The notes under the pieces: model-generated
Told to the model about the DNA's origin: nothing
What the model saw: only the letters and a program-made list of their open reading frames with translations
Database searches by the model: none
In this document: piece by piece, positions 10,558 to 14,775 of the stretch
Layout of the letters: each line of letters begins with the position of its first letter
Numbering within the stretch: the stretch's first letter is position 1
Translations under genes and position numbers: made by a program
From: Gemmatimonadales bacterium
Lineage (GTDB): Bacteria; Gemmatimonadota; Gemmatimonadetes; Gemmatimonadales; GWC2-71-9
NCBI GenBank assembly: GCA_038321865.1
Contig: JBBQFH010000005.1
Span: 32,001-96,000 of the forward strand
DNA length: 64,000 nucleotides
Reading direction: 5' to 3'

Positions 10558-11304
10558 ATGCGCAAGCTGATCCTCTCCTGCATCCTGGTCGCCGTTCCCG
10601 CCGCGGCCGTCGCGCAGGTCGCCGGCCATTTTCCACCGGACTCGCTGGTCAACACCAAGGTGATCGCGCACAACACACCGGTCATCCAGGTGGTGGGCAT
10701 GATGCGGAACTTCGCCGGCGGGCTGGGCGTCCGCTGCCCGTACTGCCACGTCGGCGAGGAGGGCCGGCCGCTAGAGACCTTCGATTTCCCCAGCGACCAG
10801 AAGCGCACCAAGCTCGTCGCCCGGCAGATGATGCTGATGGTCCAGGAGATCAACCGTCGGGTGGACACCCTGCCCGGCCGCACGAATCCCGGACTCCAGG
10901 TCACCTGCGCGACGTGCCACCACGGCGCCAGCCGCCCGGTGCCGCTCGGCATGCTCATCGCCGATGCCGCGACGGCCGGTGGTGCCGATTCCGCCGTCAG
11001 GACCTACCGCGCGCTACGCGAGCGGTATTACGGTCGCGACACCTACGACTTCAGTGAGAACTCGCTCAACACCGCCGCCTTCCGCCTGGCGCGCGCGAAC
11101 AAGTACGACGAGGCGTTCGCGCTCCTTCGGCTGAACGAGGAGTTCTATCCCACGTCGTCCGGCATGTACGTCTTCCGCGGCAATATCGAGCTCCTCAAGG
11201 GCGACACCACCGCCGCGGCGAAGGCGTTCGGTGAGGCGGTGCTGCGCGACCCGAAGAACCAGGAGGCGCAGGGGCGGCTGCGGGACATCGGCCGGAAGCC
11301 ATAA
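10558..11304 (+). CDS. Periplasmic di-heme c-type cytochrome with C-terminal TPR repeats
   Basis: Signal peptide; CPYCH and CATCH; C-terminal TPR-like helices ('LLRLNEEFYP', 'AVLRDPKN'). Confidence 0.8.
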   Translation: MRKLILSCILVAVPAAAVAQVAGHFPPDSLVNTKVIAHNTPVIQVVGMMRNFAGGLGVRCPYCHVGEEGRPLETFDFPSDQKRTKLVARQMMLMVQEINRRVDTLPGRTNPGLQVTCATCHHGASRPVPLGMLIADAATAGGADSAVRTYRALRERYYGRDTYDFSENSLNTAAFRLARANKYDEAFALLRLNEEFYPTSSGMYVFRGNIELLKGDTTAAAKAFGEAVLRDPKNQEAQGRLRDIGRKP

Positions 11305-11395: not shown

Positions 11396-11614
11396 GTGGA
11401 CACACCCCGGTTACGAAACCGACTTCGCGTGGCGCGCGCCGAGCTGAGGATCTCGCAGGAGCAGGCCGCCGTCCTCGCCGGGGTCACCCGGCAGACGATC
11501 AGTTCGATCGAGACCGAGCAGTACACCCCATCGGCTCTGCTGGCATTCGTCCTGGCGCACCGATTGGGGAAGCCGGTCGGCGAACTCTTCTTCCTGGAAG
11601 GAACCGCATCATGA
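11396..11614 (+). CDS. XRE/Cro-family HTH transcriptional regulator
   Basis: 'LRNRLRVARAELRISQEQAAVLAGVTRQTISSIETEQYTPS'. Confidence 0.92.
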   Translation: MDTPRLRNRLRVARAELRISQEQAAVLAGVTRQTISSIETEQYTPSALLAFVLAHRLGKPVGELFFLEGTAS

Positions 11615-11904
11615 CATCCGCAGCCGTGGAGCGCGACGAACGGACCGTCGCCCTGGAGAACTCGGGCTACCGCTGGTCCTACCTGGTGCTGTCGTTCGGT
11701 CTGCTGCTGAGCGTCGCGTACCGGAGCTTCGCACGCGGTGAGACATCGTGGGACCTGTTCGCGTTGGTGCTGGTGGGAGGCGCCGTGAACGCGGTGTACC
11801 AGGCCACGCACCACGTGCTGTACCGGCGCTGGGCGGTGTTGTCCACGCTGGCGATACTGGTCGGAGCGGCACTGGCCGCGATGCTCGTCGTGTTTCGGCA
11901 CTAG
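11611..11904 (+). CDS. Small 3-TM membrane protein ('DER' motif), typical partner of XRE genes
   Basis: ATGA overlap with XRE gene; 'ERDERT' followed by hydrophobic helices. Confidence 0.7.
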   Translation: MTSAAVERDERTVALENSGYRWSYLVLSFGLLLSVAYRSFARGETSWDLFALVLVGGAVNAVYQATHHVLYRRWAVLSTLAILVGAALAAMLVVFRH

Positions 11905-11939
11905 GGCCAGGCCATCATCGCTCTTCGCGAAACGCTGCG

Positions 11940-12743
11940 ATGATCATCGGACTGGCGTCGCCGGGCGTGGCGGCCAGTCTGGAGGACGGCCTCGGGCGTA
12001 TCGACCGGCTTCTGGCGGATGCATCGGGCCGGGGCGCCGAGATCGTGTGCTTCCCCGAGGCGTACCTCCCGGGACTGAGGGGTCAGGACTTCGACGTGCC
12101 GCCGTTCGGCGAGGCGCAGCAGGAGGAGACGCTCCAGGCCGTCGGCGACCTGGTTCGACGGCACGGAGTCACCACGATTCTCGGCATGGAACGCGTGACG
12201 CCGGCCGGCCGCCAGATCGCCGCCTTCGTCATCGATCATCGCGGCCGGCTGCAGGGCTTTCAGACCAAGAACCAGCTCGATCCCACCGAAGACCGCCATT
12301 ACATCCCTGGACACACTCGCCGGCTCTTCGAGGCCGGCGGCGTGAAATTCGGCATCGTGATCTGCCACGAGGGGTGGCGATATCCGGAGACGGTCCGCTG
12401 GGCGGCGGTTCGTGGCGCCAGGATCGTCTTCCACCCGCACCATGCGGGAAGCGACCGAACCGGGGCGCGCCCCCAAAGCTGGGGCGCCGCGGGCGGTGCC
12501 TACTACGAGAAGGCGATGATGCTCCGGAGCATCGAGAACACCATCTATTTCGCCAGCGTCAACTACGCGCTGCGGTTTCCGGAATCGGCCACCAGTCTGA
12601 TCGAGCCGTCGGGCCAATGTGAGGCGTATCTGCCGTACGGAGAGGAAGGGGTACTGGTGCGGGAGATCGATCCCGCCCGGGCGACCGGACTACTGGCCGG
12701 CCGGTACGCGCCCGACCGCTATCAGGACGAGAGCGTCGAATAG
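11940..12743 (+). CDS. Carbon-nitrogen hydrolase (nitrilase superfamily)
   Basis: E-K-C triad contexts 'CFPE', 'QTKNQL', 'VICHE'. Confidence 0.9.
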   Translation: MIIGLASPGVAASLEDGLGRIDRLLADASGRGAEIVCFPEAYLPGLRGQDFDVPPFGEAQQEETLQAVGDLVRRHGVTTILGMERVTPAGRQIAAFVIDHRGRLQGFQTKNQLDPTEDRHYIPGHTRRLFEAGGVKFGIVICHEGWRYPETVRWAAVRGARIVFHPHHAGSDRTGARPQSWGAAGGAYYEKAMMLRSIENTIYFASVNYALRFPESATSLIEPSGQCEAYLPYGEEGVLVREIDPARATGLLAGRYAPDRYQDESVE

Positions 12744-13537
12744 CCGGCGGTCAGCGCCGGCCACTCCGCCGCATCGAACCGCAGGTGTGGGACGACACGG
12801 GCGCCGAGGGCGGCCGCGGCCGGCACCAGTCCGGCGTTGACGGCCGCCCCGCCCACCAGGATCGGTCCGGTGAAGGCGGGCGGGCGGGCGAACGCGTCGA
12901 GCAGGACGCGAAGTGCCGGAGTCTGTGAGGGCATGGAAATCGACAGGCCGACGGCTGTGCACCGCTCCGACAATGCCGCGTCGACGATGGCCTGGGGGCT
13001 GAATCCGTAACCCAGGACCGTGGTGCGCACGCCCATGCTCTCGAATCCCAGGCTCGCGAAGCGAAGCCCGAGCATGTGCATGTTTCCCGGAACCGCGGCG
13101 ATCAGGATCGTCGGTGCGTTCGGCGCCGGCGCGCTCAGCGCCGCCGCCTGAATGTGGCGCTCGATCAGATCGACCAGCGCCTCGCAGGCTTCGGTGAAGC
13201 GATGCTCTTCGCACACCGTCAGCAGGTTCGCTTCCCAGCGCCGGCCCACGGTGACCAGCTGGGGTCCGGCAAAGCCGAACAGCATGTCGAGCGGTCGGAT
13301 GCCCGCCGCAAACCCTTCGACAGCGAGCGCTTCCATCTCGAGTGGCGCGCCCTTGCGCCCCGCAGCCCAGAACCGGCGGTTGAGGTCCGCGAGATACCGC
13401 ATTCGCCGCTCCTGCTCTCCGGTCCACTGCAGGACGGAATCGCCGCAGGCATCGCAGAGCCCGTGCGATACTTCATGGGTCTCGTACGGCGAACTCTCAC
13501 CCTGGAACCGCTGACAGTACGCGCACCATTTGATCAC
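12722..13537 (-). CDS. Zinc-ribbon + CarH-type cobalamin-binding (cap + Rossmann) protein
   Basis: GTG start overlapping upstream TGA; CAYC...SHGLCDAC; W-x9-EH ('WEANLLTVCEEH'); 'NMHMLG...GLSIS...LVGG'. Confidence 0.8.
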   Translation of the reverse strand: MIKWCAYCQRFQGESSPYETHEVSHGLCDACGDSVLQWTGEQERRMRYLADLNRRFWAAGRKGAPLEMEALAVEGFAAGIRPLDMLFGFAGPQLVTVGRRWEANLLTVCEEHRFTEACEALVDLIERHIQAAALSAPAPNAPTILIAAVPGNMHMLGLRFASLGFESMGVRTTVLGYGFSPQAIVDAALSERCTAVGLSISMPSQTPALRVLLDAFARPPAFTGPILVGGAAVNAGLVPAAAALGARVVPHLRFDAAEWPALTAGYSTLSS

Positions 13538-14775
13538 GAGACACTCGCCGCTGCGTCCAGCGCGACGGACAGCTCGCGCACCGCCGCCCGCCACTCGTTG
13601 CCGAAACGGGTCTCATCGGTCAGCCACGACTCGATGGCCGCGTAGGCGCCGGGCACGCCGGCCGCCTCGTCGGCATGCGCCGAGGCCAGCAGCGGCACCG
13701 CACCATGGAGGGCGGAAAGGCGTTGGTCGAATCGGGCGTTCAGGTCTTCCACCGCCGCATCGGGCAAGTGAGCCCGCCGGCTTGCGCCCAGCTCCCCCAC
13801 CACGCGCCTGAAGCTGGCGGTCTCCCGGGTGCGCGCCGGCGCCGCGGATTCTATCTCCGTCGCCAGCTCACGCATGTGTGTCTCGAGAATCAGCGTGGGA
13901 ATGCCGCGGCTCGCCAGCACCGTGCGTAGCCACGCGATGCTTCGGGCGATGGATTCATACTGGAGCGGCATGAGGGTAAGCAACCAGCAGCTGTCGCTCG
14001 CGGTGAACCGCCGGCCGCGTTCGCCGAAGCGCCGCTCGAGGTACGGATACCGTTCCCGCGCACGGACCCCCGCACGGATCGCGATGGCGATCTCGGCCGG
14101 ATCGTCCGGCAATGCGTGCCGGCCCGCCTCGGGATTGAGCGCCGTGAGCTGCACGGTGACGTTGGCGGCGGTGAAGGGAAAAAGTGCCAGCACGATGGTC
14201 TGCAGCCCCGCGAAGGCGGCGACCGCGGCCGCCTCGATTCTGCCTCCTTCGGGGTCAGTCAGCCGGATCGCGTCGAGGTCGGTCACGAACCGCGTCCAGG
14301 CCCTGCGGGTCTCCTTGCCGTAGCAGCCGAAGTAGCGAAGGGCGTCCGGCGCCACGTCGAGCGACTTGGCAAAGAGCGACTTCAGCGCGATACCACCGTT
14401 CTGCGAACCCTCGAACACGTACAGATAGCCGAGCAGCTCGATCTCGGGTGACTGCACGAGCTGGTCGGCCATCGCGAGTGCGGCGCGGACGGCGGGATCG
14501 ATCGCCGTAAGGTGCCCTTCGGGCCGCAATGCCAGGTCTTCGATCAGGTGCGGCAGTTTTGCGAGATCGTCCCGCCAGACCCGTCCGACCCGGGGGTCCC
14601 GGGCGGTCGAGAGGCCGCGCTCGAGCACGGCATGGATGATCGCAAGACAGTGGAGATACGATTCGGCCGCGGCGGCGGGCAGCGTCCCCGCCCGCAGCGC
14701 GTCGTAGAAGGGCGTCGCCTCGATGCCGTCATGAGCGTTCGATGTCGCCGCCTGCAGGCGGGCTCTCACGGACAT
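13534..14775 (-). CDS. Biliverdin-producing heme oxygenase (BphO/HemO-like) fused to a C-terminal photoglobin/phycobiliprotein-like helical domain
   Basis: 'LQAATSNAHDGIE' (proximal His), 'GYLYVFEGSQNGG', 'YFGCYG...WTRF'; C-terminal 'RFGERGRRFTASD...WLRTVLASRGIP'; AAGGA RBS. Confidence 0.8.
   Translation of the reverse strand: MSVRARLQAATSNAHDGIEATPFYDALRAGTLPAAAAESYLHCLAIIHAVLERGLSTARDPRVGRVWRDDLAKLPHLIEDLALRPEGHLTAIDPAVRAALAMADQLVQSPEIELLGYLYVFEGSQNGGIALKSLFAKSLDVAPDALRYFGCYGKETRRAWTRFVTDLDAIRLTDPEGGRIEAAAVAAFAGLQTIVLALFPFTAANVTVQLTALNPEAGRHALPDDPAEIAIAIRAGVRARERYPYLERRFGERGRRFTASDSCWLLTLMPLQYESIARSIAWLRTVLASRGIPTLILETHMRELATEIESAAPARTRETASFRRVVGELGASRRAHLPDAAVEDLNARFDQRLSALHGAVPLLASAHADEAAGVPGAYAAIESWLTDETRFGNEWRAAVRELSVALDAAASVS

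Follow-up and report, generated by a model that had tools for sequence, protein, structure and literature searches.

A heme oxygenase-photoglobin gene overlapping a Cys4-finger B12 gene in a Gemmatimonadales bacterium: a candidate two-protein photocobilin supplying its own chromophore

A stretch of 64,000 nucleotides from a Gemmatimonadales bacterium (GenBank assembly GCA_038321865.1, contig JBBQFH010000005.1, positions 32,001 to 96,000; hereafter the window) carries two overlapping genes on the minus strand. Gene 1 encodes a heme oxygenase (HO) joined to a globin of the bilin-binding type, and gene 2 a B12-binding protein headed by a four-cysteine (Cys4) finger. With modest confidence, we favour the reading that the pair is a two-protein, self-supplying photocobilin in which the finger relays the light signal. 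Photocobilins extend B12 photoreception to red light but depend on an outside supply of biliverdin; in this pair the enzyme and the antenna form one chain. The idea of photoglobin, B12 protein and HO acting together has been published before, so the surprise is limited. What is new is the finger-B12 family, together with the changed loop of its lower ligand and its alternation with a dedicated kinase.

The two-gene unit

Both open reading frames were confirmed, together with the GTGA in which the first-pass annotation of this DNA had seen them overlap. The features of the unit, numbered by window position, are as follows.

14775-13534, minus strand: gene 1, 413 residues; fusion of heme oxygenase and photoglobin-type globin with a C-terminal helical tail
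14176-14766, minus strand: heme oxygenase domain, residues 4-200 (PF01126); proximal His15, distal helix G123-S-Q-N-G127-G128
14101-14163, minus strand: conserved linker, residues 205-225, N214-P-E-A217-G218-x-H220; N, A, G and H in 110/110 homologues
13771-14109, minus strand: predicted bilin-type globin, residues 223-335; T258-x-x-D261, W264, W282, L287, R290
13537-13767, minus strand: C-terminal helical tail, residues 337-413; conserved A366, D369, G373, W384, F391
13534-13537, minus strand: GTGA start/stop overlap of the two genes, predicted translational coupling
13537-12722, minus strand: gene 2, 271 residues; Cys4 finger, B12 cap bundle and B12 Rossmann domain
13427-13537, minus strand: N-terminal Cys4 finger, residues 1-37; W-C5-x-Y-C8 ... 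H25-G-x-C28-x-x-C31
13142-13399, minus strand: B12-binding_2 cap bundle, residues 47-132; G98-x-x-W101-x9-E111-H112
12746-13120, minus strand: B12-binding Rossmann domain, residues 140-264; G151-N152-x-H154-x-x-G157, S199, G229-G230; no GxxxP

Longer open frames are present for both genes, from ATG 14781 and GTG 13594 respectively. The gene 2 start at 13537 was favoured because 29 of 29 aligned homologues have their M1 at the matching residue, and the gene 1 start at 14775 has AAGGA immediately upstream. The source database annotates gene 2 from Met46, so that the finger is omitted.

The heme oxygenase domain of gene 1

Homologues of gene 1 numbered 127 among 8000 candidates, mostly full-length and of about 420 residues, and a structure model based on an alignment of 110 of them returned a predicted local distance difference test score (pLDDT) of 96.5 and a predicted template modelling score of 0.91. 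PF01126 (Heme_oxygenase) matched residues 4-191 with an E value of 6.5e-14 (52.7 bits against a cut-off of 23), residues 1-203 aligned with heme oxygenase structures at Z scores of 17.8-24.5 in the fold search, and Foldseek on the whole of gene 1 listed heme oxygenases alone. The heme oxygenase motifs noticed at first pass were borne out: the proximal His15 is kept in 96 of the 110 homologues, and G123 and G127 of the distal helix in 100 and 103, given as alignment column counts since a strict motif expression misses the GA and GS variants. The domain was also aligned to HO-1 and HO-2, and the heme-ligand motifs match. Judged from its sequence, it should turn heme and O2 into biliverdin.

A bilin-type globin and a separate tail

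The C-terminal half of gene 1 had been described as one helical domain of about 200 residues. It is helical, but it comprises a globin (about 223-335) and a separate tail (337-413). The globin fold suspected at first pass was recovered by the fold search, in which the best globin match of residues 223-335 was photocobilin 8J2W (Z 12.3, root-mean-square deviation 2.2 over 107 residues); phycobiliproteins scored 9.2-11.4, the top ones (11.4 and 10.9) tying with 8J2W. A sequence-profile search placed the 8J2X and 8J2W globins in the two top positions with weak E values (0.14 and 0.17). A single-sequence search of the PDB with the 208-residue globin half (13537-14160) gave chance matches only, Pfam returned no noteworthy family on 68 globin rows, and an Atlas search with the globin half and the finger gave unnamed clusters only (<0.9).

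D261, W264, W282 and L287 occur in 110 of 110 homologues and T258 in 91. The photoglobin signature consists of a helix-3 Asp, a helix-4 Leu and a Cys, Ser or Thr three residues ahead of the Asp (PMC8717448). L287 corresponds to the helix-4 Leu by the 8J2W alignment, D261 was matched to the helix-3 Asp by motif and spacing (26 against 31 residues, with a shorter loop), and T258-x-x-D261 fits the Cys/Ser/Thr-x-x-Asp motif. W282 aligns with SasPcob Trp296 in the 8J2W profile alignment, using a numbering offset of 6 (W55/E65/H66 of the PDB entry being Trp61/Glu71/His72 of PMC10979010); Trp296 touches both the D ring of biliverdin and the corrin (PMC10979010). A heme-binding globin was ruled out by Leu287, which takes the place of His at the proximal position. 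The modelled fold and these positions support a bilin-type (photoglobin-type) globin in the C-terminal half of gene 1.

The linker is the most conserved segment of gene 1 and is retained also in the HO-less globin genes P0118, P0119 and L128. Such HO-less versions (linker, globin and tail, about 215-230 residues) were seen at L057, L061, L066, L075, L077, L121, L123, L128 and L148, some of them convergent with a finger-B12 gene. The fold search of gene 1 barely covered the tail and gave no match for residues 337-413. One single-chain HO-globin-B12 fusion, P0065, was found. No longer fusion of the globin half (724-2065 residues) occurred among the 8000 candidates, itself weak evidence, and a 718-residue "fusion" at L029 has an out-of-frame stretch and was not counted.

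The B12 domains of gene 2

PF02607 and PF02310 both matched gene 2 above cut-off, and in fold and profile searches photocobilin, CtMerR and CarH came first, ahead of methyltransferases (8J2W, Z 22.3). Among 29 aligned members, C5, C8, H25, C28, C31, W101, E111, H154 and S199 are invariant, while H112 and the G229/G230 pair are kept in 27. The CarH-type SignatureFinder motifs GxxW, EH and GxxH are present as G98-R-R-W101, E111-H112 and G151-N-M-H154. The motif content supports a CarH/photocobilin signature on the predicted upper face of the cobalamin. The CarH-type motifs read at first pass thus stand for W-x9-EH and for the lower His; they do not for the lower-ligand loop, where gene 2 departs in its motifs from the CarH signature by an N-x-H and the lack of GxxxP, one of the four SignatureFinder motifs (PMC11796333). 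This Asn-x-His variant offers a natural test of how Co-C photolysis is tuned. The MerR-type helix-turn-helix (HTH) of CarH/LitR is absent from gene 2 (NF052513, 20.5 bits against a cut-off of 400). In the finger-B12 genes of L038 and L062, ER replaces EH in the upper-face motif.

Gene 2 might instead encode a methyl-carrying corrinoid protein whose Cys4 site activates a thiol acceptor, the HO serving unrelated iron scavenging. Source labels read "methanogenic corrinoid protein MtbC1", methionine synthase came first in the single-sequence search, and TIGR02370 and MtbC matched weakly. We regard this as very improbable, since W-x9-EH is present, photoreceptors lead both profile and fold searches, the NCBIfam matches lie far below cut-off and Pfam detected no corrinoid methyltransferase family among 112 genes flanking the finger loci.

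A second alternative is a sensor of O2, heme or thiol redox state and not of light, in which loading of the globin by HO would require O2, and redox elements would be formed by the N-x-H site for cobalamin (or heme), the Cys4 finger and perhaps Cys263 of the globin. Family members occur in Desulfuromonadales, Geobacteraceae and Bacteroidales, which are anaerobic lineages. The lower-ligand motif differs from that of CarH, Cys263 is kept in 26 of 29 finger-associated globins against 7 of 39 others, and AerR (Z 18.2) and AppA SCHIC (Z 15.3) share the gene 2 fold. HO needs O2 (PMC10151467), and a MerR-type CarH-like gene is already present in the genome, next to carotenoid genes. We nevertheless hold this explanation to be quite unlikely, because the adenosyl-binding G-x-x-W-x9-EH is kept in 27 of 29 aligned globin-linked members, photocobilin outranks both AerR and AppA in the fold search, and Leu287 speaks against a heme globin.

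The Cys4 finger defines a family

The N-terminal segment of gene 2, previously called a Zn ribbon, was modelled as hairpin-strand-helix with a local pLDDT of 65-77. A treble clef consists of a CxxC knuckle, a hairpin and a second CxxC where a helix begins. By our reading of the modelled topology, the finger appears treble-clef-like rather than a classical zinc ribbon. Its four Cys and one His are invariant in 31 of 31 rows; the putative bound metal would be Zn or Fe. On these rows Pfam gave no family above cut-off, with sub-threshold matches only, and the fold searches, which did not cover the finger region, gave no fold match for it. The finger shares homology with the I-C-x-x-C-K-K-I-R...S-H-G-I-C-x-x-C stretch at the C-terminal end of REC/PAS proteins (hhalign 94%, E 1.3e-7, with a REC/PAS profile of four rows only). 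PAS/REC proteins ending in such a finger were seen beside HO-globin genes at L039 (5270-5899), L079 (5280-5918), L022 (1551-3155) and L027 (8611-8934).

A six-frame search of the genome with the finger profile matched the gene 2 frame only (E 1e-17), so the finger is not a chance pattern. The profile search returned 1218 matches at E 0.001 and 295 at 1e-10; among the best 150, 115 are at least 225 residues long, and of those 114 carry a B12 domain and 108 the N-x-H. Because many finger-B12 loci lack an HO-globin gene, finger-B12 proteins are, at the sequence level, a family in their own right, with HO-globin as one of its partners. A finger-B12 photoreceptor was not found in the open-licence literature, although the figures of Schneider and Figs S11 and S12 of Rockwell may contain it.

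Linkage of the two genes across genomes

The best 80 of 123 confirmed genome loci were compared, and 78 distinct ones remained after the duplicates L009 and L023 were dropped. A finger-B12 gene accompanies gene 1 in 31, a finger-less B12 gene in 25 and none in 22, many of the last being short contigs; some B12 gene is thus present in 56 of 78. Where finger-B12 and gene 1 follow in the same order, they overlap in 21 of 22 loci, 17 of them by 7 nt. The co-occurrence predicted at first pass was therefore recovered, and the overlapping pair recurs across many phyla. An unlinked finger-B12 gene was detected in 5 of the 22 genomes whose locus has no B12 gene, against 3 of 300 genomes of one background family.

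A globin tree of 70 rows, from which 8 further loci were left out for want of a usable globin row, contains a 33-row branch (support 100/97) with 27 finger loci. The same branch holds five loci without a B12 gene, three of them with an unlinked finger-B12 gene, and L022, the one locus classed as finger-less, which encodes PAS-PAS-finger-B12. Four finger loci fall outside the branch. The closest homologues of both genes lie in one Gemmatimonadales assembly under consecutive accessions. The HO-globin fusion is patchy among relatives: the full fusion was not found in 60 relatives of this genome, and HO-only matches occur in 3.

Finger or kinase as the probable output

The genes flanking these loci were called by a custom gene caller (704 genes, with approximate starts). 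Next to the B12 gene on its downstream side, 17 of 23 finger-less loci have a His kinase gene in the same orientation, against 0 of 28 finger loci. A kinase, receiver, EAL or GGDEF gene lies within two genes in 22 of 25 finger-less loci against 11 of 31 finger loci (Fisher p 9e-5, a significance exaggerated by the kinship of the loci). A profile of the kinase input module, run on the 704 called genes, retrieved two genes besides its 17 seeds, a kinase and a non-kinase; in the latter, at L039, the kinase-family input module ends in a homologous finger (E 4.6e-12) in place of the kinase core. Since the kinase follows finger-less partners only and the L039 finger replaces a kinase core, the Cys4 finger is probably the output of the system, which narrows the "unknown output" of the first-pass annotation. 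The alternation of finger and kinase also gives a handle on an unnamed Cys4 domain that has no Pfam family.

Pfam on the 112 genes flanking finger loci found no family common to most, with REC-EAL in three loci. No bilin reductase family was found among these 112 genes, no genome-wide search for one having been made. The kinases following finger-less B12 genes form a family of about 380 residues with a PAS-like and coiled-coil input (L028, L032, L037, L046, L050, L055 and others), and these finger-less loci with their dedicated kinase are a candidate for a separate three-gene light-kinase system. Light- or tetrapyrrole-related neighbours were each seen at a single locus: a sigma factor with a ChrR cupin (L002, 3831-5065), a Mg-chelatase-like ChlI/ChlD pair (L012, 3520-6392) and a phytoene synthase (L040, 735-3044).

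Genome-wide context

Gene 1 is the one HO found in the genome, which is 89.85% complete and in which no PHY domain was detected. An HO serving a phytochrome was rejected on this ground, PHY being present in 1 of the 31 genomes with the pair. Because no other HO and no phytochrome were found here, with PHY in 1 of 31 pair genomes, the fused globin is the evident customer for biliverdin. A link to photosynthesis was likewise rejected, no PufL/M having been found in the genome. A PduO-type adenosyltransferase is encoded here, and an adenosyltransferase in 27 of the 31 genomes with the pair; two mutase matches were also obtained in this genome. The MerR-B12 CarH-like gene of this genome (L081, 6836-7774, G000:C13) is followed directly by a phytoene desaturase-like gene and a match to phytoene synthase.

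Proposed mechanism

From the observed folds, motifs and linkage we infer the chemistry, the docking and the output of the photocobilin-like pair. The HO domain, whose fold and catalytic motifs were observed, would convert heme and O2 to biliverdin. The biliverdin would pass to the tethered globin, where Asp261 and Trp282 would hold it as an antenna for red light that is itself photo-inert. The gene 2 protein, made by co-translation, would bind adenosylcobalamin in a His-on state, with His154 below and Trp101, Glu111 and His112 above, and would dock on the globin as the fused SasPcob domains do; the Co-C bond could then be broken by green light directly and by red light through biliverdin. In the last step, suggested by gene context, the cap bundle would move and reposition the Cys4 finger on its first helix. 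As the output module, the finger would make protein contacts in trans with an unlinked partner and so take the role that the dedicated adjacent His kinase has in the sister lineage. As HO requires O2 (PMC10151467), the response to red light would need O2 and heme, and that to green light would not.

With enzyme and antenna tethered, chromophore channelling and coupling between two proteins become directly testable, and a red-light tool that supplies its own chromophore could result. A bolder version, which we put forward tentatively and consider doubtful, is that of an undescribed family of B12 photoreceptors with a 37-residue Cys4 finger, taken from the REC/PAS finger, as sole effector. Combined with HO-globin, it would make and channel its own red chromophore as a gate for red light AND O2, and, once photolysis has occurred, the invariant linker residue His220 might ligate the cobalt in trans and so lock the pair together. 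If true, a finger as sole effector would be the first function for the REC/PAS-type finger as well as a compact self-supplying red-light switch.

Evidence against the photocobilin reading

Several observations weigh against the preferred reading, a two-protein photocobilin with a finger output. On the structural side, a globin Z score of 12.3 is within the range that helical domains reach through common arrangement, the profile match is weak, and P0065 is the single example of the one-chain fusion, on a contig of 2.7 kb. On the cobalamin side, the lower ligand is N-x-H in 28 of 29 finger-B12 proteins against E/D-x-H in 24 of 25 finger-less partners, and the GxxxP expression matches 2 of 29 against 13 of 25, the query having G176-x4-P181. 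In SasPcob this loop, degenerate here, carries His137, a proposed biliverdin contact (PMC10979010). W-x9-EH is kept in 72 of 115 members of the wider finger family, and adenosyltransferases are common (9 of 14 controls), so that their presence discriminates little.

Linkage is also looser outside the genome set. Among 55 distinct metagenome loci seeded with gene 2 (80 minus 25 duplicates), any part of gene 1 lies near finger-B12 in 21, some as fragments; of the 25 with at least 1.3 kb upstream, 7 have HO and globin. The three finger-bearing genomes among the 300 of one family all lack this globin family. The finger-B12 protein is no obligate partner of the globin; of the two-protein partnership supposed at first pass, the linkage holds and obligate pairing does not. 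As to the output, 11 of 31 finger loci do have a kinase, receiver or EAL gene within two genes, and the exchange of finger for kinase was seen at one locus (L039), where the pairwise BLAST match is weak (E 9e-4). The loci are moreover related, so that all counts overstate independence. Runs of kinase, REC-EAL and finger-B12 at L110, L138, L147 and L158, in which gene 1 is missing or a short fragment, suggest repeated loss of HO-globin.

These data leave room for an autonomous finger-B12 protein sensing green light or cobalamin availability, with HO-globin as an optional accessory, or as a heme degrader with a biliverdin sink, not optically coupled to it. Many finger-B12 genes occur alone, the loop that in SasPcob carries His137 is degenerate across the family, BBAG-2 globins bind biliverdin and are photo-inert alone (PMC10151467), and biliverdin binding by AbDPcob is weak, at about 20% occupancy (PMC10979010). 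Such autonomy is nonetheless unlikely in view of the gene overlap in 21 of 22 loci, the invariance of W282 at a corrin-contacting position, the tracking of partner type with the globin tree and the single-chain fusion P0065.

Surroundings of the unit

The two genes are flanked by a DinB-family gene upstream and, on the other side, by a convergent nitrilase-family gene (Pfam; 11937-12743, plus strand), which runs tail-to-tail into the end of gene 2 (12722) with 22 nt shared. The G+C content of the unit resembles that of the remainder of the window; a promoter and terminator scan detected no element, and no plasmid match was obtained. The first-pass annotation had stated that no phytochrome, HTH, kinase or cyclase is encoded nearby. 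No PHY was found, the sole His kinase and receiver detected in the window lie about 44 kb from the pair, and no GGDEF or EAL domain was detected in the window, but a small HTH_3 regulator gene (11396-11614, plus strand) lies 1.1 kb from the pair, on the opposite strand and in a different gene run. It is overlapped by a gene for a small membrane protein (11611-11904, plus strand). The protein encoded at 10558-11304 (plus strand) looks secreted and matches c-type cytochromes (PF02276), with two CxxCH motifs, ahead of tetratricopeptide repeats, in a genome without detected PufL/M.

Comparison with known systems

The HO domain shares its fold and heme-ligand motifs with HmuO, HO-1/HO-2, HemO and PigA (PF01126) but, unlike these, is fused to a bilin globin; no phytochrome accompanied the gene pair in 30 of the 31 genomes searched.

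Fusions of HO and photoglobin, the type to which gene 1 belongs, have been reported, and the novelty of architecture that the first-pass annotation had supposed was not upheld. Schneider (2022) describes a biliverdin-producing heme oxygenase carrying a photoglobin (WP_045221611.1), with Heme_oxygenase in the architecture legend, and reports stand-alone photoglobins almost always beside B12 domains (PMC8717448); sets of globin, B12 protein and HO are given in PMC10151467. Gene 1 has the phycocyanin-related globin fold, Leu287 in place of a proximal His and an adjacent B12 gene, as photoglobins do; its likeness to WP_045221611.1 is one of description. Photoglobins were associated with signalling genes "in almost all instances" (PMC8717448), which fits 22 of 25 finger-less loci and only 11 of 31 finger loci here. 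The main text of that paper mentions no zinc or ribbon, and the finger is a feature of gene 2.

According to Rockwell (2023), BBAG-2 globins are biliverdin-specific, photo-inert alone and generally found with HO and separate B12 proteins (PMC10151467). The present pair resembles these sets in having globin and B12 protein on separate genes, with HO in the cluster or genome. It differs by the fusion of HO to the globin, no HO fusion being described for BBAG-2 in the accessible part of that source, and by RGIP (P293 invariant) in place of the BBAG-2 RGMC. A split globin/B12 arrangement is also given for pre-2 clusters (PMC13446030); these hold a bilin reductase, and the 112 flanking genes scanned here do not.

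Like CarH/LitR, CtMerR, AerR and the SignatureFinder set, gene 2 has GxxW, EH and GxxH (PMC11796333); unlike CarH/LitR, it lacks both HTH and GxxxP. The partner domains named in the accessible part of the SignatureFinder paper are HTH, DGC, BBD, GAF, MEDS, ANTAR, DICT and PDE, with no Cys4 finger among them (PMC11796333).

The closest parallel is with the fused photocobilins SasPcob and AbDPcob, for which optical coupling was reported by Zhang (2024; PMC10979010; PDB 8J2W, 8J2X, 8J2Y). The pair shares with them the B12 cap and Rossmann domains, W-x9-EH, the lower His, and globin Asp and Trp at matching positions. It differs from them in being two polypeptides, in the HO and helical tail on the globin, in the Cys4 finger on the B12 protein, and in the N-x-H of gene 2 for E-x-H without the GxxxP/His137 loop. 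In working principle the pair is thus photocobilin-like, but with two genes it lies outside the single-chain definition of a photocobilin.

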